A program made the translations under genes and the position numbers. Positions 8,330 through 59,114 of a stretch of DNA of 64,000 nucleotides are shown piece by piece; the stretch's first letter is position 1, and each line of letters starts with the position of its first letter. This stretch comes from Akkermansia muciniphila (lineage in GTDB: Bacteria; Verrucomicrobiota; Verrucomicrobiia; Methylacidiphilales; CAMAQI01). The stretch lies in the NCBI GenBank assembly GCA_945883905.1, contig CAMCYL010000001.1, positions 2,088 to 66,087 of the forward strand. Direction: 5' to 3'. Below the pieces are notes generated by a model. The model had not been told where the DNA came from. It did no database searches and was given only the letters and a program-made list of their open reading frames with translations.

Positions 8330-8520
8330 CAGAGAATTTATTATCTTTAACCCAGACTCTACAATAGGAATAAAAAATGGAGCGCCGACGGTTTTGACGG
8401 CATAGGCGTCAACTTAAGAGAAAAGAAATTACAGTTTTAACCGCAGGGTAAACGGGGGGTAACGGAGGTTATGACTGTTTTCTGATAAAGCGTTTTATTC
8501 CATTCCGTAAATGGGGAACA

Positions 8521-21660: not shown

Positions 21661-22530
21661 ATGCCTGCAAATCGTTTTAATAATTTCACTGAATACGAAA
21701 TCGGAATTGGACTTCGTGTTCCGCACTATGATCATATTTTATCGGAGCGACCAACCGTGGATTGGTTTGAGATTATTTCGGAGAATTACATGCAGGAGGG
21801 GGGGCGTCCTTTATCTGTTCTTGATCGCATTTTAGAGCAGTATCAGGTCGTTCAACATGGTGTTTCTCTTTATTTTGGCTCTAAGGATCCGTTGAATCGG
21901 ACTCATTTAAAGAAACTTAAAAAACTTTGTCAGCGCACAAAAACTCCGTGGCTTTCAGATCATTTATGCTGGGGAAGTGTGGATGGAACCTATTCTCACG
22001 ATCTTTTACCTCTTCCGTATACCTTAGAAGCGGCGAAGAATGCAGCGAAAAAAATTCGTGAGGTTCGTGACTTTTTAGAAATCCCTATTGCTGTCGAGAA
22101 TGTGAGTAGTTATGCTGAATTTCATTCTTCTGAAATGAATGAGTGGGAGTTTTTGACCGAGGTCGTCGAGCGGGCTGATTGTGGAATTCTATTGGATGTG
22201 AACAATATTTATGTCTCCTCGCAGAATCATACCTTTGATCCCAGAGATTATATTTTAGGAGTGCCTCATCATCGTGTAGCTCAGATGCATATCGCCGGAC
22301 ATTCTAAGTATGAACGATTTATTATTGATACCCATGATCATCCGGTCATCGACCCCGTTTGGGCTCTTTACGATTTAGCGATTCAAAAAGTGGGGCCGAC
22401 AGCGACGCTCTTAGAATGGGATGCTCGTATTCCCTCTTTTCAAGAGGTTCATGATGAGGCAAAGAAAGCGACTCGATATTGGAAAAGTCGAAAAAAGATT
22501 GCGCAAAAAAAACAGAAAAGAGGATCATGA
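21661..22530 (+). CDS. DUF692 / MNIO-family (MbnB/HvfB/BufB-like) iron-dependent peptide-modifying enzyme
   Basis: The full-length DUF692 pattern is present: IGIGLRVPHY, WFEIISENYM, QHGVSLYFGS, WLSDHLCW, LLPLPYT, AVENVSSY, LLDVNNIYVSSQNH, HIAGH, IDTHDHPV, LLEWD. Confidence 0.85.
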   Translation: MPANRFNNFTEYEIGIGLRVPHYDHILSERPTVDWFEIISENYMQEGGRPLSVLDRILEQYQVVQHGVSLYFGSKDPLNRTHLKKLKKLCQRTKTPWLSDHLCWGSVDGTYSHDLLPLPYTLEAAKNAAKKIREVRDFLEIPIAVENVSSYAEFHSSEMNEWEFLTEVVERADCGILLDVNNIYVSSQNHTFDPRDYILGVPHHRVAQMHIAGHSKYERFIIDTHDHPVIDPVWALYDLAIQKVGPTATLLEWDARIPSFQEVHDEAKKATRYWKSRKKIAQKKQKRGS

Positions 22531-23423
22531 ACTCCCTTGCTCAAATCCAAAAAGACTTTTTAAATTGCGTAAAATCTCCTTTGAATTCAAAAGATCGGAT
22601 TCAACTGAATCCGAAGGGGGTTCAATGGGTAAAGTCGGAGATGAAGCCGAATGATCGATTGAGTGGAGAGGCACGTATAGAGATCTATGCCCGACAATAT
22701 TGGTTTCGAATTTTAGAGTCCCTTTATGACGATTTTCCAGGATTAAGAGCGTTGATGGGGGATCTTGCCTTTGAGCGATTGATCCGAGAATATATCGAAA
22801 AATACCCCTCACGCTCCTATACCTTACGTGATTTTGGGAATCGATTGCCTGCTTATATTCTAAAAGAAAAAAAACGATATAAAACGAATTCAATCCTTTA
22901 TTTTCAAATGGCAACCATGGAGCTTGCTCAACTTCATGTTTTTGATGAAAAAGAGGAAAAGCCTTTGAGTTCAAAGAGTTTAGGGTCGAGACCTTTGAAT
23001 CGTCGTTTTCAGATTGCACCTCATGTTCGTTTGATGATTTTAGATTATCCGCTCGATGAATTGCAGTTAAAGTTAAATCAAGGCGGGGTTCGTGAGCAGT
23101 TGAGTAATGGGGTTTTAGATCGACGATTGAGAACTAAATGTCGATTGATCGTTGGAAAACTTCAAAAAGAAAAGGTTTTCCTAGCGGTGCATCGACATCA
23201 GTATCGGGTTTATTTCAAAAGAATGGAGCCTTGGGCATTTGAATTATTACAGAGTTTAGAATCGGGAAAACCGTTGGGGAAAGCGATCGAGATCGTGTTG
23301 AGTCAGAAGAAATATTTAAAGCAGGGAATTTCTGATCGTGTTGGAGATCAATTTCGAGAGTGGTCTGCCTTGGGGTGGATTCAAATATTAAAATCAAAAA
23401 CGACTTTCTTCAAGTCTCAGTAA
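22527..23423 (+). CDS. DUF2063 protein (HvfC/BufC-like partner of MNIO enzymes)
   Basis: ATGA overlap with the DUF692 stop. The N-terminus IQKDFLNCV...IEIYARQYWFRILESLYDDFPGLRALMGDLAFERLIREYIEKYPSRSYTL matches the DUF2063 pattern. Confidence 0.75.
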   Translation: MNSLAQIQKDFLNCVKSPLNSKDRIQLNPKGVQWVKSEMKPNDRLSGEARIEIYARQYWFRILESLYDDFPGLRALMGDLAFERLIREYIEKYPSRSYTLRDFGNRLPAYILKEKKRYKTNSILYFQMATMELAQLHVFDEKEEKPLSSKSLGSRPLNRRFQIAPHVRLMILDYPLDELQLKLNQGGVREQLSNGVLDRRLRTKCRLIVGKLQKEKVFLAVHRHQYRVYFKRMEPWAFELLQSLESGKPLGKAIEIVLSQKKYLKQGISDRVGDQFREWSALGWIQILKSKTTFFKSQ

Positions 23424-29692: not shown

Positions 29693-29790
29693 TTTCTGAG
29701 ACTCATTGACTTTTATTTTTTTCTTACGCAGGGATTGGAGTTCACTACCGTCCAAAACCACTTTGGATTTGAGAGGGAAAATCGAAGAGG

Positions 29791-30244
29791 GGGATTGAAA
29801 TCCTAAATCAGTTCTCACACAACGCCGCTACGCCGCCACGTCAGAGAGGGAGAAGATCGTGAGCTCATTCCTTTCGGCGTCTCCTTCGTCGGCTGCCGCC
29901 TACAGAGAATCTCTCCCGTTTCTTTGAAAAAAGGATTTTCAAAAAACGATCGAGTTTCTCTGTAGGGGCTCGGTTTCACCTCTCCTCGGAAAGAGCTCAC
30001 GATCCTTTCAGGGAGAAATTCTCAGATTGTTTTTATATAAAAAAAGGGGGGGAGTTCTGACCCCAAGAGCGTAAGCGATAGATCCTTGTTTTTAAAAAGG
30101 GATCGAAAGCTCGTTTTCGAGAACTTTTTAAAAATAGGGAGGAGGCTCGGAGGAGCCGTGGTCAGAACGAGGGGGGGGTAGGGATTTAACGTGGCGTCGT
30201 GGCGTCGTTGCGCGAGACAATGTATTTAAGGTATTTTGTTTTGG
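29791..30244. repeat. Composite palindromic repeat, copy R1 (arms plus IR-bounded core, with a nested 246-bp palindromic insertion)
   Basis: The left arm 29791-29816 is identical to 54248-54273. The right arm 30218-30244 matches 54488-54514 at 22/27. The core 29813-30217 is bounded by 29-bp imperfect inverted repeats (24/29) and matches the reverse complement of the R2 core. Confidence 0.85.
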
Positions 30245-30310
30245 ACACCAATGATTGGAGCTCCTTTTGTGCTCTTGTTCTTTGGCTGAAATCTGGTTTT
30301 CTTTTTAGTT

Positions 30311-42697: not shown

Positions 42698-43975
42698 TTA
42701 AACTTGAGGGAGTTCGTTCCAAGAGGTGGTGTAGTTTGGCGAGCGTTGACTTGATTTTCCGCTCCATGTTTTATTGAGTCCAGAGGAGCCGAGGGTTATT
42801 TTTTCAGCTCCCCAGCGACGATTGATCCGATCCATTGTTTCCATGAGACGCTGTTGTTTCTCTTCTTGAAGCGATTCTTCGAACCAATGGAGTTGTTGAG
42901 TGCTTTTCTCTTGGAGATGGGAGAGTAGGATGCCGGCTTTTTTGTACTTTTGATGAGGCTCATAGAGCTTCTCTAAAAGTTTAAATCCGACTTCAATAAA
43001 GGTCGGGGTGTAGTCATTGGGGGAGGTGAGACGGTGGGAGATGGTGACCATCGGTTTCTCCTTTTTTTGTTTCCAACGATTGGGAGCAAGAAATAGATGA
43101 ATCATGCCCGCGACTGTTTTTTGAGAACGCATTTTTTCGGCAGCGGAAACAAGATGAGTGGAGATCGCTTCTTGGAGTTCTTGTAGTGAACTCACCTCTT
43201 TGCCGAAAGAACGGGAGCAGAGGATACTTTTTTGGAGTTGTGGATTTTCCTCAAATCCGAGTGTTGGAATTCGATGGAGCTCCATCCAAATCCTCTCTCC
43301 GGTGACGTGAAGATTCTCTCGGATCCAGAGTCGTTCTGTTTTCATGAGTTCTGCAACAGTTTGAATGCCGTTATTTTTTAAAAAGAGGGAGAGTTTTCTG
43401 CCGATTCCCCAGATCTCTTCGCAAGAGGTGGTTTGAAGGAGAGATTCTGATTCTGGATTGTTTTCCCATATCCAGACCCCTTCGCTGGAGGGACGTTTTT
43501 TAGCGAATCGATTTGATAATTTGGCTAAAACCTTGGTGGGAGCGACTCCGACACTGACGGGAAGTCCGGTCTCTTGAAGGATTTTTTTTCGCAGTTCTGT
43601 TGCCCAAGTGTGAGGGGAAGGGAGAGAGGGGATCCAAAGAAAGGATTCATCGATGGAGTAGATTTCATTTTTGACGGCAAATCGTTTTAAGGTTTCCATT
43701 AATCGGTGACTCATCTCGTTGTAGAGAGGGAAGTTTGTCGAGCGAATTTGGATTTGATGTTGAGAGATCAGTTCTTTGATTTTAAAAAAGGGAATGCCCA
43801 TTGGAATTCCGAGATCTTTTACCTCTTGGCTGCGGGAGATGACGCAGCCGTCGTTATTTGAGAGAACGATCAAGGGACGAAATCGAAGTTTTGGATCGAA
43901 GACGCGCTCGCAGGAGCAGAAGAAGTTATTTCCATCGACGAGCGCTAAGAGTGGGGAGGGAGAGGAGGGCCTCAT
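42698..43975 (-). CDS. umuC: Y-family translesion DNA polymerase, UmuC-like
   Basis: LVDGNNFFCSCERVFDPKL..PLIVLSNNDGCVISRS is the UmuC signature. Start at ATG 43975 in an ATGA overlap with the umuD stop. Confidence 0.85.
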   Translation of the reverse strand: MRPSSPSPLLALVDGNNFFCSCERVFDPKLRFRPLIVLSNNDGCVISRSQEVKDLGIPMGIPFFKIKELISQHQIQIRSTNFPLYNEMSHRLMETLKRFAVKNEIYSIDESFLWIPSLPSPHTWATELRKKILQETGLPVSVGVAPTKVLAKLSNRFAKKRPSSEGVWIWENNPESESLLQTTSCEEIWGIGRKLSLFLKNNGIQTVAELMKTERLWIRENLHVTGERIWMELHRIPTLGFEENPQLQKSILCSRSFGKEVSSLQELQEAISTHLVSAAEKMRSQKTVAGMIHLFLAPNRWKQKKEKPMVTISHRLTSPNDYTPTFIEVGFKLLEKLYEPHQKYKKAGILLSHLQEKSTQQLHWFEESLQEEKQQRLMETMDRINRRWGAEKITLGSSGLNKTWSGKSSQRSPNYTTSWNELPQV

Positions 43976-44346
43976 AAGGGGTGAATGACATTTGTGACCA
44001 CTCCCCAAATTTGGAAGTCGGACTCTGGAGTGATCTCTAAGAGGGGATACCCGGCGGTGGTTGATTCGAGGAAAAATCGACTCTCTTTTCGTCGCAGCAT
44101 TTTGACGGAGAATTCACCGTTCCAGATTGCGACGATGACCTTTTTATCTTGGGCGGTGAGGGAGCGATCGACGATCAGAAGATCTCCTTCATGAATCCCA
44201 GATCCGAGCATCGAGTTTCCTCGAACTCTCATGAAGAAAGTGGAGGTAGGGTGCTCGATTAAATAACGGTTGAGATCGAGAGTCGGTTCGAGCGATTCAT
44301 CGCCAGGGGGGAGGAGTCCGGTCTGATTTTGAGAGGAAAACTTCAT
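43972..44346 (-). CDS. umuD: S24 self-cleaving peptidase, UmuD-like
   Basis: 124 aa. FFMRVRGNSMLGSGIHEGDLLIVD (Ser nucleophile) and FSVKML (Lys). Confidence 0.85.
   Translation of the reverse strand: MKFSSQNQTGLLPPGDESLEPTLDLNRYLIEHPTSTFFMRVRGNSMLGSGIHEGDLLIVDRSLTAQDKKVIVAIWNGEFSVKMLRRKESRFFLESTTAGYPLLEITPESDFQIWGVVTNVIHPL
44262..44281. repeat. 20-nt exact direct repeat, copy inside the umuD 5' coding region
   Basis: AATAACGGTTGAGATCGAGA is identical to 44554-44573. Similarity extends to about 25/28. Confidence 0.9.
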
Positions 44347-49627: not shown

Positions 49628-50548
49628 ATGGAAGGGAATGAGGCGATGATTTTTGCAGAGCGCTTCTTGGAATCGACTCGAATTCGGGGTCGTTCCGATC
49701 TTACTCGGCGTAATTACAGACAGGTTTATCGAGAGTTTTTAGAATGGTCAAAAGCGAGTACTTGGGTTGGACTGAAGAAGCAAGATTTTAAATCTTATCT
49801 CTATTTTTTAACAATGGAGAAAAAAATTGTCTCCTCGAGTATTCGACTTCGTTTTGCGGCTTTAAGGTCGATTTATCAGTATGGAATTAAAAATCGAGTT
49901 TTCGATGAGAATCCCGTGAAAGGGGTGAGCCTCCCTAAATTACCGCGTAAGCTTCCGGTTTTTATGACCGAAGTTCAGATTCAGGAACTTTTGGAGGCTC
50001 CCCAAAAGAAATGGGAGGCACGGGGGACAAAAGCGAAAGTGGGAAGACCTTGGAATCGTTGGCAAATGTTAAGAGATACAGCTTGGCTAGAGGTTCTTTA
50101 TAGTACTGGGATTCGTTTACAGGAACTTTGTCGCCTCAAGAGAAGTGATCTTGATTTTGAATTGGGATCGGTCCGAGTCTTTGGTAAGGGGGCGAAAACA
50201 AGAGTGGCGGTGTTGGGGGGGGCCTGTGTACGGGCGATTCAAGCATATCTTTCGGAACCGATTCCGGCCTCTGAATTTTTGTGGGTGGGAGATCAAGGGA
50301 GGCCACTATCGATGAGATCGATGCAACTGCTTTTAAAGGATTATTTAAAGTGGGCAGGATTACCGGTGACTTTGAGTCCTCATAAAATTCGGCATAGTTT
50401 CGCCACTCATTTATTAAATCATGGAGCTGATTTAAGAAGTGTGCAGGAGATGCTGGGGCACTCCCAGATTACGACAACGCAAATTTATACGGCAGTTTCG
50501 ACGGAGCGAATGAGACAGGTTTACGATCAGGCCCACCCACGAGCTTAA
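49628..50548 (+). CDS. Tyrosine site-specific recombinase, XerC/XerD-like
   Basis: 306 aa. SAM-like N-domain, then TGIRLQEL (Arg), HKIRHSFATHLL, LGH and the catalytic Tyr in TTQIYT. Confidence 0.85.
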   Translation: MEGNEAMIFAERFLESTRIRGRSDLTRRNYRQVYREFLEWSKASTWVGLKKQDFKSYLYFLTMEKKIVSSSIRLRFAALRSIYQYGIKNRVFDENPVKGVSLPKLPRKLPVFMTEVQIQELLEAPQKKWEARGTKAKVGRPWNRWQMLRDTAWLEVLYSTGIRLQELCRLKRSDLDFELGSVRVFGKGAKTRVAVLGGACVRAIQAYLSEPIPASEFLWVGDQGRPLSMRSMQLLLKDYLKWAGLPVTLSPHKIRHSFATHLLNHGADLRSVQEMLGHSQITTTQIYTAVSTERMRQVYDQAHPRA

Positions 50549-53742: not shown

Positions 53743-54255
53743 GTGGCTTCTTCTATGAAATATTATGGAGTGGATTTAGCGAAGCGATTTTCGCTCTTTT
53801 CTTTTTTAGTCGTATTATTTTTATATTCATTTGAGCCTTTATTTTCTCAGGGACTTTCTGAAAATCCGACTCTCAGGACGGTCACGGCGAGTGTTGGATT
53901 GGTTAAAATTTCTGCTGAAGTGGCGATTACTTCCAAGGAGTTGGCTCAGGGGTTGATGTTTCGGAGTCGCCTTCCGGATAATGCCGGGATGATTTTCTGT
54001 CTACCACGAGTTGAAAGAGCCTCCTTTTGGATGAAAAATGTTTCGATTCCTCTTTCAGTTGCCTATTTAGATCGAAATGGAATGATTATAGAGATTTTAG
54101 AGATGACTCCCTTTGATGAACGACCGATGTGGAGTCGCAGTGACCAGATTTATTATGCGCTTGAGATGAATCAAGGATGGTTTCAGTTGAATCAAGTAAA
54201 AGTGGGGGACCGTGTTTTGGTAGAGGGAAAGAGCGTAGAGAGATTAAGGGATTGA
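53743..54255 (+). CDS. DUF192 protein (secreted)
   Basis: ELAQGLMFR...GMIF...FWMKNVSIPLSVAYLD...ALEMNQGWF matches DUF192. Start is either GTG 53743 or ATG 53755. The stop TGA lies inside the left arm of repeat R2. Confidence 0.75.
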   Translation: MASSMKYYGVDLAKRFSLFSFLVVLFLYSFEPLFSQGLSENPTLRTVTASVGLVKISAEVAITSKELAQGLMFRSRLPDNAGMIFCLPRVERASFWMKNVSIPLSVAYLDRNGMIIEILEMTPFDERPMWSRSDQIYYALEMNQGWFQLNQVKVGDRVLVEGKSVERLRD

Positions 54256-54514
54256 AATCCTAAATCAGTTCTCGCGCAACGACGCTTCCTCCTACGTCCA
54301 AGCACTTCCACCTACGCAAAGGCTACGGCGGACAAGACGGCGAGACAAGACGCCGCCACGTTAAAACCCTACCCCCCCCCCCCTCGTTCTGACGACGTTT
54401 CTTACGAGCCTCCTCCCTATTTTTAAAAAGCTCTCGAAAACGAGCTTTCGATCCTCTCCCTCTCTGACGTGGCGGCGTTGCGTGAGATAATGTCTTTAAG
54501 ATTTTTTGTTTTAG
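54248..54514. repeat. Composite palindromic repeat, copy R2 (core inverted relative to R1)
   Basis: The arms are co-linear with R1. The core 54270-54487 equals the reverse complement of the R1 core modules, including the IR polymorphisms, with a private insertion of about 63 bp. It lies between convergent genes. Confidence 0.85.
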
Positions 54515-54556
54515 TGGCACTACTGGAACAAAACTCAAAATAGAGCAAGCTATTTG

Positions 54557-56278: not shown

Positions 56279-58981
56279 ATGGCCGTAGAATATAAATTGA
56301 CCCTCCAGCTTCCGAAAACCGATTTTCCAATGAAAGCGGATCTCCCGATTCGTGAGCCGAAACTACTTGAAAAGTGGAAAGCAGAAGATCTTTATCATCA
56401 GATCCTCGAACGACGTAAGAATGGGAAGCCCTTTATTCTTCATGACGGCCCTCCGTTTGCGAATGGGGATGCGCACATGGGTCATGCTTTGAATATGACC
56501 CTCAAGGATATGGTTCTTAAATCAAAGAACATGGCCGGTTATCGGGTTCCTTTTATTCCGGGATGGGACTGTCATGGACTGCCTATTGAGCATAAAGTGA
56601 TGAAGGAGCTTGGGGATTTGGCTAAAGATCCTGTGACGATTCGTCAAAACTGTGAAGCTTACGCTCGTAAGTATATTGAGATTCAGCGAAATCAATTTGA
56701 GCGACTCGGGGTTCTTGGAGAGTGGCAGAAGCCCTATCTAACGATGGATCCGAGTTATGAGGCGGATGTCCTTCGGACGCTGGCGACGATTGTTGAAAAG
56801 GGATGGATCTATCAAGCCCTTCGACCGGTGTATTGGAGTACCGGTTGTCAAACCGCTTTAGCCGAGGCCGAGATTGAATATTCTCCAAAGATGGATCTCT
56901 CGGTTTTCGCAAAATTTTCAGTCTTAGAATCCTCATTATCTAAGCTCGGAGTTTCGAGTTCCGTTTCAATTCTAATTTGGACGACGACTCCGTGGACTTT
57001 ACCGGCGAATCTCGGAGTTGCGGCAGGGGCCGGAATTGCATACGGACTTTATCAACAGAATGGGGAACATTTCTTGGCGGCGACGGCTTTAGCGGCCTCT
57101 CTTCCGGGATTTGCAGCAGGTGAACCGATCCAGGTTTTGAAGGGAATCGATCTTGAAGGGATTGAATATCAACATCCGTTTTTAAATCGTCAGGGAAAAG
57201 TTTATACCGCAGATTTTGTAACGACGGAGACCGGCACTGGATTTGTTCATATTGCTCCGGGGCATGGACGAGATGATTATCAGCTGGGTCAACGAGTCGG
57301 ACTTCAGACCCTTTCACCCGTCGATGATCGTGGTTGTTTGACTGAGGAGTGTGGGGTTGCAGATCTCGTCGGAAAATATGTCTTTAAGGCGAATCCAATG
57401 GTTCGTGATCTGCTGCGTAATGAAGGAAAACTTTGGGCAGAGCAGGAATTTTCTCACGATTATCCCCATTGTTGGCGCTCGAAGACGCCCATTATTTTTA
57501 GATCGGTTTCTCAATGGTTTATTGATGTGAATGGGTTTCGTGCGGAGGCATTGGATGAGATCAAGAACGTCACTTGGGTTCCGACTTGGGGAGAGAATCG
57601 AATTCGGGGGGCGGTCGAATCCCGTCCTGATTGGTGTATCTCTCGTCAACGGACTTGGGGCGTTCCATTGCCGGTTTTTTATGATGACCGTGGAACGGCG
57701 GTATTGACGGCCGGTCAGGTACGTCAAGTCGCGGATATCGTCGAGGAGAAGGGAACTGACTGGTGGTTTAAAACCGAGGCTGAGGAGATTGCAAAGACCT
57801 TGGGTTTACCTGCGGGGCTGCGTAAGGGATTAGATACCATTGATGTTTGGATTGATTCCGGGGCGAGTCATGCTGCCGTGGTGAAGCGTCGTCTGTCCTT
57901 TCCTGCCGATCTTTATCTTGAGGGAAGCGATCAGCATCGAGGATGGTTTCAATCCTCTTTATTGACCTCTGTTGCTGTCTGGGGAACTGCCCCGTATAAA
58001 CAGGTTCTGACCAACGGGTTTGTCGTGGATATGGATGGAAAGAAGTTATCGAAGTCGGATGCCTATAAAAAACCGACCGATCTCTTAAGTTTTGTCAATA
58101 AATTTGGAGCCGATATTTTGCGGCTTTGGGTATCGAGTCAGGACTATCGAGATGATGTTCCTTTTTCTGAGGAGATTTTCACACGAGTGACCGATTCTTA
58201 TCGAACCGTCCGAAATACCGTCCGAATTTTGCTCGGTAATCTCTCGGGATTTAATCCAGAAAAAGGGGTCGATCGTTCGGAGTGGTCGGAGATTGATCTT
58301 TATGTGGAGGCACAGTTACAAGATTTGATCCGGACGGTTCTTGGAGCCTATGAGTCATACGAGTTTCATGCCGTTTATCATGCGGTAATTCGCTTCTGTT
58401 CAGTTGATCTTTCCGCTTTTTATGTCGATGTCTTGAAGGATCGAATGTATTGCGATGCGGTGAGCGGTAAACGCCGCCTTGCGGCGCAGACGGTGATGTA
58501 TCGAGTATTGGAAAGTTTAGTAAGGATCATCGCTCCTATCATGCCTTATACGGCAGAGGAGACGTGGTTAATGATGGGAAAGAAAGAGTCGATTCATTTG
58601 CAGCTTTTTCCGGAAGCGGGAGAGGGAGCCGCTCACTATCGAGATCGTTGGGATCGATTGATCCAAGTACGTTCTTTAGTGAATGAGCATCTTGAGAAGG
58701 CGCGTCAGCAAAAACTGATTGGAAAGAGTTTGGAGGCGCAAGTGACTTTGAGAGGTTCAACGTTTCAGGAGAATGATCGAGAGCTCCTTCAAGAGATCTT
58801 TATCGTTTCTCAGGTGAGATTAGAATCGGCCCCCACCCTCTCTGTGGAGGTTTCTCCCGCTGGAGGATTGAAGTGTGTTCGTTGTTGGAAATTTGGTGAG
58901 GAGAATGGAAAGCATGCGGAGCATCCTGAGCTTTGTCCTCGATGTACAGAGGCGGTTTTGGCGTTAAACCCAGATTCTTAA
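56279..58981 (+). CDS. ileS: Isoleucine--tRNA ligase (type 1, zinc-finger C-terminus)
   Basis: HMGH (GDAHMGHALN), KLSKS, the CP1 editing domain, and a C-terminal CVRCWKF...CPRC. Confidence 0.95.
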   Translation: MAVEYKLTLQLPKTDFPMKADLPIREPKLLEKWKAEDLYHQILERRKNGKPFILHDGPPFANGDAHMGHALNMTLKDMVLKSKNMAGYRVPFIPGWDCHGLPIEHKVMKELGDLAKDPVTIRQNCEAYARKYIEIQRNQFERLGVLGEWQKPYLTMDPSYEADVLRTLATIVEKGWIYQALRPVYWSTGCQTALAEAEIEYSPKMDLSVFAKFSVLESSLSKLGVSSSVSILIWTTTPWTLPANLGVAAGAGIAYGLYQQNGEHFLAATALAASLPGFAAGEPIQVLKGIDLEGIEYQHPFLNRQGKVYTADFVTTETGTGFVHIAPGHGRDDYQLGQRVGLQTLSPVDDRGCLTEECGVADLVGKYVFKANPMVRDLLRNEGKLWAEQEFSHDYPHCWRSKTPIIFRSVSQWFIDVNGFRAEALDEIKNVTWVPTWGENRIRGAVESRPDWCISRQRTWGVPLPVFYDDRGTAVLTAGQVRQVADIVEEKGTDWWFKTEAEEIAKTLGLPAGLRKGLDTIDVWIDSGASHAAVVKRRLSFPADLYLEGSDQHRGWFQSSLLTSVAVWGTAPYKQVLTNGFVVDMDGKKLSKSDAYKKPTDLLSFVNKFGADILRLWVSSQDYRDDVPFSEEIFTRVTDSYRTVRNTVRILLGNLSGFNPEKGVDRSEWSEIDLYVEAQLQDLIRTVLGAYESYEFHAVYHAVIRFCSVDLSAFYVDVLKDRMYCDAVSGKRRLAAQTVMYRVLESLVRIIAPIMPYTAEETWLMMGKKESIHLQLFPEAGEGAAHYRDRWDRLIQVRSLVNEHLEKARQQKLIGKSLEAQVTLRGSTFQENDRELLQEIFIVSQVRLESAPTLSVEVSPAGGLKCVRCWKFGEENGKHAEHPELCPRCTEAVLALNPDS

Positions 58982-59114
58982 TTAGGAATTTAAAAAATGG
59001 AGCGCCGATCCGGCAGCTGCCGGAGCGGCATGGGTGAAGGGGGATGTTTTTTGTCTTTCCTTCCTCATCCTTCAAATCCACCCCTGATTCAGGCCGCTCG
59101 GTCCTCCGTTTACG

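Follow-up and report, generated by a model that had tools for sequence, protein, structure and literature searches.

The 64,000-nucleotide stretch of DNA analysed here (the window) carries two copies of a composite repeat, R1 and R2, whose outer arms run in the same direction while the segment between them is reversed in one copy relative to the other. The locus thus raises the question of what kind of element can keep its ends fixed and turn its centre around. The original prediction offered two explanations: an invertible segment captured in opposite states at two loci, or a mobile element bounded by terminal inverted repeats (TIRs) that inserts in either orientation at one precise position of a second, REP-like repeat. 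The window is part of an 80.4-kb MEGAHIT metagenome contig (k141_1136053, ENA ERZ27280311), and was compared with related contigs from the same and other samples.

The arms were indeed found to be co-linear. Within the 64-kb window the left arm GGGATTGAAATCCTAAATCAGT (22 nt) is matched exactly twice, on the + strand in both cases (29791 and 54248), as against 0 matches in 100 shuffles even with three mismatches permitted. The identity of the two left arms extends over the predicted run of 26 nt (36/39 overall). Direct reading of the right arms gave the same count as before, 22 of 27 positions matched, and their local alignment reached a score of 33, exceeding the shuffle maximum of 27 (0/1000 shuffles reach the score). 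The segment that is reverse-complemented between R1 and R2 is the stretch between TCTC and GAGA, and the sequences outside it are co-linear. The internal inverted repeat TCTCRCRCAACGNCGC has four occurrences in the window, against a chance expectation of 0.33, and these form two inverted pairs (29813+/30202- and 54270+/54472-). In R1 this pair is 29 nt long and matched at 24/29 positions (83%), in agreement with the earlier description of the repeats bounding the core, and is without a long exact run.

The inversion of the core was equally clear. R1 30100-30200 is the reverse complement of R2 54350-54454 (~89-92% identity, E = 1e-26 within the window), placing the shared module on opposite strands in the two copies as had been claimed. 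Over 44 nt (89%), the left end of the R1 core matches the R2 right end in reverse complement, and the exact reverse-complement match proposed for the R1 right and R2 left ends was recovered over 16 nt (Table 1). When R2 54270-54487 was flipped in silico, the score of its collinear alignment to the R1 core rose from 58 to 204 (141/151 positions identical), and the flipped R2 could be aligned over its whole length to R1 and to a third copy.

The extent of the element can be read from related species. The genes next to R1, both on the + strand, encode a LuxR-type response regulator and an M48 peptidase, and the region between them measures 618 nt in the window versus ~104 nt in contigs L012 and L013 and 53 nt in L100, which represent other species and not strains (M48 ~90% identical in L012 and L013, ~85% in L100). 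At the orthologous site, both of these species lack R1 together with its arms. With 29743-30262 removed, the window aligns across the junction with L012 at a score of 46 (shuffle mean 14, maximum 27), and L012 and L013 hold one single TTGGAG at the corresponding point. The two sides of R1 carry a 9-bp target duplication whose copies differ at one position. The element inserts, with its arms, as a single unit and duplicates 9 bp of target. The insertion takes in the arms described previously and ~50 nt further left; the earlier coordinates, 29791-30244, are too small, and R1 spans 29743-30253. A point against this reading is that the right terminal repeat of R1 matches its left one at only 12/16 positions.

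The termini recur in further copies. Contig L099 (9.2 kb, from the window's own sample) ends inside the left part of one copy, R3, and starts inside the right part of another, R4. The terminal repeat reads CACTACCGTCCAAAA(C/T) on the left side of both R1 and R3, and its reverse complement, CACTAGCGTCCAAAAC, stands at the right of R4 (15/16). R3 begins with CACTACCGTCCAAAAT like R1, and R4 closes with GTTTTGGACGCTAGTG, the reverse complement at 15/16; the left 15-mer of R1 is identical at L099 8501-8515 (R3 left end) and reverse-complemented at L099 292-306 (R4 right end), the 16-mers of R1 left and R4 right matching at 15/16. The right arm is a shortened, reverse-complemented left arm that lacks ~40 nt, which is why the two arms look unrelated. 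The arms are the ends of one element rather than an independent, REP-like repeat. The second of the original explanations therefore stands with regard to a TIR-bounded, MITE-like mobile element, but not with regard to the second repeat: 511 bp including the arms are absent from the relatives' site, the insertion has its 9-bp duplication, the outermost ends form the terminal repeat, and the limited sequence reached contains no arm-only copy. The features of both copies are collected in Table 1.

Table 1. Coordinates of R1, R2 and their component features in the window.
Feature	Position	Strand	Evidence
R1 left target-site duplication copy, ATTGGAGTT	29734-29742	.	8/9 versus 30254-30262, ATTGGAGCT
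R1, complete 511-bp non-coding mosaic element, core 'forward'	29743-30253	+	absent at relatives' site
R1 left terminal inverted repeat, CACTACCGTCCAAAAC	29743-29758	+	15-mer identical at R3 left end
R1 long left arm (La), containing the earlier arm 29791-29812	29743-29812	+	83.5% over 79 nt to R3 left arm
R1 internal inverted repeat, left arm (cL), extended to GATC	29813-29858	+	24/29 complementary to 30189-30217; equals reverse complement of R2 54439-54482
Nested module N, 246 nt, palindromes, GATC direct repeats at both sides	29859-30104	+	~90% over 233 nt to R3
Core module m: hairpin GATCGAAAGCTCGTTTTCGAGA, then G8 tract 30171-30178	30105-30188	+	~89-92% to reverse complement of R2 54350-54454
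R1 internal inverted repeat, right arm (cR)	30189-30217	+	outer 16 nt, 30202-30217, exact reverse complement of 54270-54285
R1 short right arm (Ra), right terminal inverted repeat 30238-30253 at end	30218-30253	+	aligns with R4 right arm (L099 271-306) and R2 54488-54512
R1 right target-site duplication copy, ATTGGAGCT	30254-30262	.	8/9 versus ATTGGAGTT
R2, older copy, 54270-54487 inverted, ~305 bp	54216-54520	+	outer ends degenerate, approximate
R2 left internal repeat: cR type 54270-54285, then 64-nt module 54286-54349, then CGCCGCCACGT	54270-54361	+	84 nt 95% to R3
R2 core module m, reversed, C12 tract 54372-54383	54362-54449	-	reverse-complement match to R1 m
R2 right internal repeat, cL type, reverse complement	54450-54487	-	match to R1 left core end
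R2 right arm (Ra), recognisable up to 54512	54488-54520	+	alignment to R1 Ra

No credible ORF was found in R1. The ORFs of R1 and R2 are only short and of low complexity, and a protein search with six-frame pseudo-proteins from R1, R2 and R3 gave no homologue at E <= 0.001. Folded as single-stranded DNA, R1 forms one nested hairpin that spans it from end to end and begins at the terminal repeat (-98.7 kcal/mol, z = -7.7), and another inverted repeat (29850-29871/29988-30009) lies within or at N. The search against Rfam that had been proposed for this locus returned no known structured RNA at gathering thresholds in the whole window, the hairpin matches in R1 being below threshold (mir-255, 32.5 with a gathering score of 50; CRISPR-DR25, 19.4 with a gathering score of 36), and a tRNA search of the window found none. 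A CRISPR remnant, as suggested by ATTGAAAT, was rejected, there being no array and no repeat periodicity. A terminator pattern scan found no site in the arms and none in R2, and in R1 one site within N, with two outside the element. The T-rich right arm, which follows the large hairpin, could nevertheless terminate transcription.

Four to five copies were reached in ~90 kb of sequence (the window and related contigs), L099 containing the two partial long copies R3 and R4 in the R1 orientation and one degenerate copy, R5. The R3-left and R4-right flanks are unrelated to each other, so these are probably the ends of two different copies. Among the ~five copies, the forward orientation is seen in R1, R3 and R4 and the reverse one in R2 alone. 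When R1, R3 with R4, and the flipped R2 are aligned, they share one order of parts: left arm, cL, N if present, m, cR and right arm. N (246 nt) is found in R1 and R3, ~90% identical, and is absent from R2; the match joins R1 29831-30063 (cL and most of N) to L099 8742-8969 at ~90% over 233 nt, and a 113-nt piece of N stands alone at L099 1727-1839 (93-97%). Module m is 88% identical to L099 120-299 on the same strand, and its G tract varies among copies from G7 to G12. A 64-nt module sits inside the internal repeat on the left side of both R2 and R3; the 84 nt compared at the left of R2 are 95% identical to the R3 left repeat (L099 8669-8752), and form an 84-nt inverted repeat in contig L011. 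A 95-nt block is specific to R3, and R3/R4 have ~275 extra nt; the long R3/R4 form, of ~0.93 kb, is at the upper edge of the MITE size range. R5 (L099 ~1586-2030) has a left-arm-like start followed by the core interior AGAGGCAGATCG (an N piece), without an internal repeat. The insertions previously described as private to each core, and taken as a mark of age, are family modules present in other copies and not copy-specific decay.

The 8.5-kb extension of the window contig holds no further copy, the 26-nt arm pattern had no match in JGI metagenomes, and viral contigs, plasmids and phages showed no similarity to the element. The 20-nt arm gave one match in public species genomes, to a Flexilinea CRISPR repeat plus spacer, and this was rejected as chance. 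No similar sequence was found in the public collections scanned, and the family appears to be previously undescribed.

The names attached to homologues of the M48 peptidase place the organism among uncultured Verrucomicrobiota. Its genome is compact, and of the intergenic gaps in the window the two that bear the element rank first (618 nt) and third (301 nt) in size. R2 lies between convergent DUF192 and LysR genes. Its left-arm similarity extends back to ~54216 (3/1000 shuffles score as well), the point where the DUF192 domain ends (residue 158, nt 54216), and the stop codon of the ORF (TGA, 54253-54255) is inside the R2 arm; the final 13 codons of the DUF192 gene appear to derive from that arm. 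The DUF192 relatives in JGI metagenome data are all at <=48% identity, too distant for an empty-site comparison at R2, and no target-site duplication is recognisable there. Since the termini and the duplication of R2 are unrecognisable, we infer by homology that R2, too, is an insertion.

Contig L011, from an independent sample, is identical to the window up to 54461, reproducing the R2 left arm, core and orientation, and the orientation of R2 is thus the same in the assemblies of two samples. Contig L018, from the sister sample ERZ27280316, matches L099 at 100% over 1875 nt that include the R3 left arm and repeat and end at GGATC. It then continues without N into the core of R2, followed by the R2 left arm and the flank with DUF192, all matching the window at 100%, and so forms a head-to-head hybrid. 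In the L018/L011 hybrid the switch between parent loci falls within a 12-nt shared block, and as a 12-nt overlap cannot give a junction in a graph of k>=21, the contigs represent either an N-less R3 allele with an assembler path through the identical core or a real R2/R3 recombinant. In either account of L018, modules of the family have recently been gained or lost, or copies have exchanged sequence. Logan/MEGAHIT contigs of other runs break at 29743/30225-30226 and 54491/54500, in or at the edge of the element, as expected of multi-copy sequence. These breaks were also considered as a sign of an empty R1 allele, which was rejected, since only the left break (29743) agrees with it and the right one (30225) does not.

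R1 and R2 are probably copies of a new, non-autonomous, MITE-like mosaic family, in which the centre of R2 was inverted once between the internal repeats, and do not represent a programmed switch. A full copy is one long nested quasi-palindrome. Its outermost layer is formed by the ~16-bp terminal inverted repeats CACTACCGTCCAAAAC ... GTTTTGGACGCTAGTG; the next consists of the asymmetric arms, ~70 nt on the left and ~36 nt on the right, of which the arms first described are the inner parts. Within these follows the second inverted repeat pair, TCTCRCGCAACGNCGC...CGCCACGT, with a length of 29 nt in R1 and of at least 84 nt with the 64-nt module, and the hairpin modules m and N occupy the centre. 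Mobilisation would take place in trans, by a transposase presumably encoded elsewhere in the genome; Pfam scans of all ~60 window ORFs found no transposase, no invertase and no RAYT/Y1 transposase.

In the R2 lineage, the segment between the internal repeats would have turned once, most likely when the repeats recombined within one molecule or when replication switched template from one to the other, and this would reverse all that lies between them and leave the asymmetric termini in place. Slippage-type gain and loss of N, the 64-nt block and the 95-nt block may later have produced the seemingly private differences. Possible substrates for the recombination are the 29-nt repeats of R1 (83%) and the 84-nt repeats with 95% identity between R2-type and R3-type ends. 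RecA-type exchange would be inefficient between the R1 repeats, given their lack of a long exact run, and the model assumes a longer ancestral internal repeat with the 64-nt module on both sides. Against a single inversion speaks the fact that the two positions separating the left and right R1 repeats both travel with the core in R2; taken alone, this would mean that the exchange took place right at the repeat's edge, as for a cut-and-paste unit, but in R4 these positions are not tied to one side.

A cut-and-paste unit is the basis of an alternative that we consider unlikely, namely nested site-specific insertion, where the TCTC...GAGA core would be a separate TIR element that entered an older, small outer element at exactly CAGT^YAATG, in either orientation. 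The flipped segment does end exactly at the outer edge of the internal repeats, with the repeat variants travelling along, and nesting does occur in the family, N being located between GATC direct repeats and present or absent in R3 depending on the sample. However, the boundaries of the core lack a duplication, and neither the 64-kb window nor L099/L101 yielded arms without a core or a core without arms; two independent events at one nucleotide position would also be required. In addition, R5 joins left-arm-like sequence directly to the core interior without the internal repeat, indicating that the interior is not limited to a TIR-bounded unit.

It is also rather doubtful that R2 arose by mosaic reassortment, that is, by recombination or gene conversion between oppositely oriented copies, perhaps in two steps. 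L011 and L018 join the R2 left arm and reversed core to an inverted R3 left arm, with each side 100% identical to its parent, and Correia elements are known to sit at such chromosomal rearrangement points, as hybrid copies (PMC2649163). Reassortment nevertheless demands more events than one intramolecular inversion, L011 could equally be an assembler path through the long identical core of the N-less R3 allele, and the window contig has R2 with normal arms in normal flanks.

The favoured single inversion retains part of the first of the original explanations, as inversion between the internal repeats is the simplest account of the flip. Ongoing switching is unlikely: the two states are at two loci, R2 is the same in two assemblies, and there is neither an invertase in the 64 kb nor a promoter above chance in R1 or R2. 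A programmed inverton, with the internal repeats serving as the sites of a site-specific invertase and the core reversible at each locus, is accordingly improbable. It would explain why an inverted-repeat-bounded segment is found in both orientations between fixed flanks and why structure differs between samples, and a tyrosine recombinase gene (49628-50548), the sole recombinase in the 64 kb, is situated 3.7 kb from R2. The product of this gene, however, scores highest as XerC/XerD (269 and 250 bits), the tyrosine invertase model giving only 70 bits. R2 is placed between convergent genes, and a sigma-70-type promoter scan gave nothing above shuffles, with no site in R1 and one marginal 9/12 site at the R2 right edge. 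The repeats themselves vary in length and content with large indels, unlike conserved recombinase sites, and the Logan contigs break in or at the edge of the arms, like a multi-copy sequence, rather than at the inner repeat ends, as would be the case for an inversion bubble. Similarly improbable is a 'portable inverton', in which the internal core would be actively invertible inside a mobile element and the sample differences would reflect ongoing recombinase activity; if it were true, transposition would seed switchable hairpin, terminator or sRNA modules downstream of genes. An assembly artefact, by which the metagenome assembler would have set the orientation of one core arbitrarily, can be excluded in practice despite the origin of the window in a MEGAHIT metagenome contig and the fragmentation of other assemblies at R1 and R2, because the internal repeat arms have no exact run near k = 21 and orientation was thus set by reads, because the flipped and unflipped cores differ by ~8-10% plus indels and are thus distinct loci, and because the R2 left arm, core and orientation recur base for base in a second sample.

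The data document a repeat family in a poorly studied, uncultured lineage of the Verrucomicrobiota. They also make visible how a nested-palindrome MITE may diversify, through interior inversion, gain and loss of nested modules, and hybrids at possible rearrangement junctions. In practical terms, the element breaks short-read assemblies, and it can extend or replace the 3' ends of genes. Active flipping, if true, would tie transposable repeats to phase-variable DNA inversion. Invertons, for comparison, switch at a single locus, require a dedicated invertase and usually carry a gene-facing promoter. The element shares with fimS and the Bacteroides capsule promoters a segment bracketed by inverted repeats and found in both orientations relative to fixed flanks, but here the two states are at paralogous loci, and a dedicated invertase and promoter cargo were not found.

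Palindromic repeat mosaics offer a second comparison. The BIMEs of E. coli and the NIMEs of Neisseria are likewise mosaics of palindromic units that occur in either orientation after gene 3' ends, but they are without target duplications, whereas here the whole array is one insertion with a duplication. The units of REP, BIME and NIME sequences are a REP or dRS3 of 20-40 nt with GTAG or CGTC tags, REP being a G+C-rich stem-loop often arranged in head-to-head dimers (PMC3733652). Assignment to REP/BIME was rejected, as the unit is hundreds of bp long, has no short tagged unit, and contains the arms only as its ends.

Correia elements (CREE) are ~100-155 bp long, have 26-bp TIRs and a TA duplication, and are specific to Neisseria. 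Similar to the family described here, they are non-coding, TIR-bounded, transposon-like intergenic repeats with subtypes defined by internal indels and end variants. In contrast, the present elements are ~0.3-0.9 kb long, with ~16-bp terminal repeats, a 9-bp duplication, a Verrucomicrobiota host and no sequence similarity to CREE, and have asymmetric arms and a second internal repeat pair such that only the interior flips. Membership in the Correia family was rejected on the termini, the 9-bp duplication and the Verrucomicrobiota host, and the likeness is one of behaviour only: in the review PMC10969869, citing Elbeyioglu et al. 2017, Correia elements of Neisseria are reported to invert in situ, a precedent for the inversion proposed for R2.

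The closest parallel is found in the MITEs. R1 is short, has no credible ORF, and possesses terminal inverted repeats, a target duplication and an empty orthologous site, and by these testable defining features the element qualifies, on its sequence, as a bacterial MITE-like element. Like RUP, ERIC/IRU, Nezha and the Coxiella QMITEs, it is short, without an ORF, TIR-bounded, associated with a target duplication, intergenic and strongly structured, and it is present in four to five copies in the ~90 kb reached and absent from the orthologous sites of relatives. It differs from these MITEs in the unusual depth of its nesting (N and the 64-nt and 95-nt blocks) and in terminal repeats that are short for the length of the element. 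As it stands, the element is an ordinary, well-structured selfish repeat.

The DUF192 gene ends within R2, the copy of the element with the inverted core. The Pfam match to DUF192 stops at residue 158, corresponding to nt 54216, and the rest of the protein is read, together with a TGA stop, from DNA that can be aligned to the left arm of the element. As both tail and stop lie inside left-arm sequence, the native 3' end of the gene appears, judging from the alignment, to have been replaced by the R2 insertion.

R2 is also connected to R3, the left part of a copy on L099 (a 9.2-kb contig from the window's own sample), by a contig of the sister sample (L011/L018; ERZ27280316 k141_598364). This contig carries a head-to-head hybrid in which the left arm of R3, in inverted orientation, is fused to the left arm and reversed core of R2, connecting the DUF192 gene with a 175-aa gene. 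The hybrid is 100% identical to the parent locus on each side and switches inside a 12-nt block. It reflects an inversion of the chromosome between copies or else a path through an R3 allele that lacks N, the 246-nt nested module.

Assembly breaks were also seen at R1 (L002, L005 and L006). On the left, the Logan contig stops at 29743, one base into the element, and on the right the neighbouring contig begins at 30225, 28-29 nt inside it. An empty-site allele co-existing with R1 would be compatible with the left break but not with the right one. The copies differ in the length of the homopolymer tract in the central hairpin module m (see table).

Features and their coordinates
Feature	Sequence	Position	Detail
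Module m tract, R1	window	30171-30178	G8
Module m tract, R2	window	54372-54383	C12; C12 in L011 too
Module m tract, R4	L099	224-230	G7
DUF192 tail and stop	window	54216-54255	
R2/R3 hybrid	L011	3451-3970	
XerC/XerD-like gene	window	49628-50548	
MbnB/TglH/ChrH-type and DUF2063 genes	window	21661-23423	
UmuD-like/UmuC-like pair	window	42698-44346	
Second palindromic family	window	8350-8395	
Second palindromic family	window	58968-59100	
Second palindromic family	L099	1839-1986	
M48-M24 insert	L012	4655-5094	
R5, right side	L099	1975-2000	
Region of arm 20-mer match	L003	1350-1750	
End repetition	L099	1-99; 9127-9225	

The only species-genome match of the arm 20-mer, in a Flexilinea MAG (JBFLFU010000013.1), comprises a CRISPR repeat 3' end (…GTGGATTGAAAT) plus its spacer and is due to chance rather than being a relative. 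A second palindromic repeat family occupies two window sites, just 3' of a glycosyltransferase gene end and of the IleRS gene end, which share AACCCAGAYTCT..TAGGAAT..AAAAAATGGAGCGCCGA; one site contains a Logan contig break point (59013). Its L099 copy, matching the IleRS-L19 site at 38/38 over ATGGAGCGCCGATCCGGCAGCTGCCGGAGCGGCATGG, adjoins the degenerate copy R5. The M48 and M24 peptidase genes, 13 nt apart in the window, are separated by ~440 nt in a related species (L012), and this insert shares ATTTCTAWTGCAAGAAAT..TTAAAT with the right side of R5.

The sole recombinase in the window, a XerC/XerD-like tyrosine recombinase scoring below the NCBIfam equivalog cut-offs, is encoded 3.7 kb from R2. 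The MbnB/TglH/ChrH-type RiPP-modification enzyme adjoining a DUF2063 protein, and the UmuD-like (Peptidase_S24) and UmuC-like (IMS) pair, bear no relation to the repeat finding.

Both ends of the 9225-nt L099 consist of one identical 99-nt stretch, oriented alike. This MEGAHIT-style loop points to two direct long copies (R4, R3) around ~8.2 kb. Chorismate synthase, the 175-aa gene and an RND efflux operon (OEP, CzcB-like, ACR_tran) are encoded in this segment, which together with the flanking R4 and R3 has a layout resembling that of a composite transposon.
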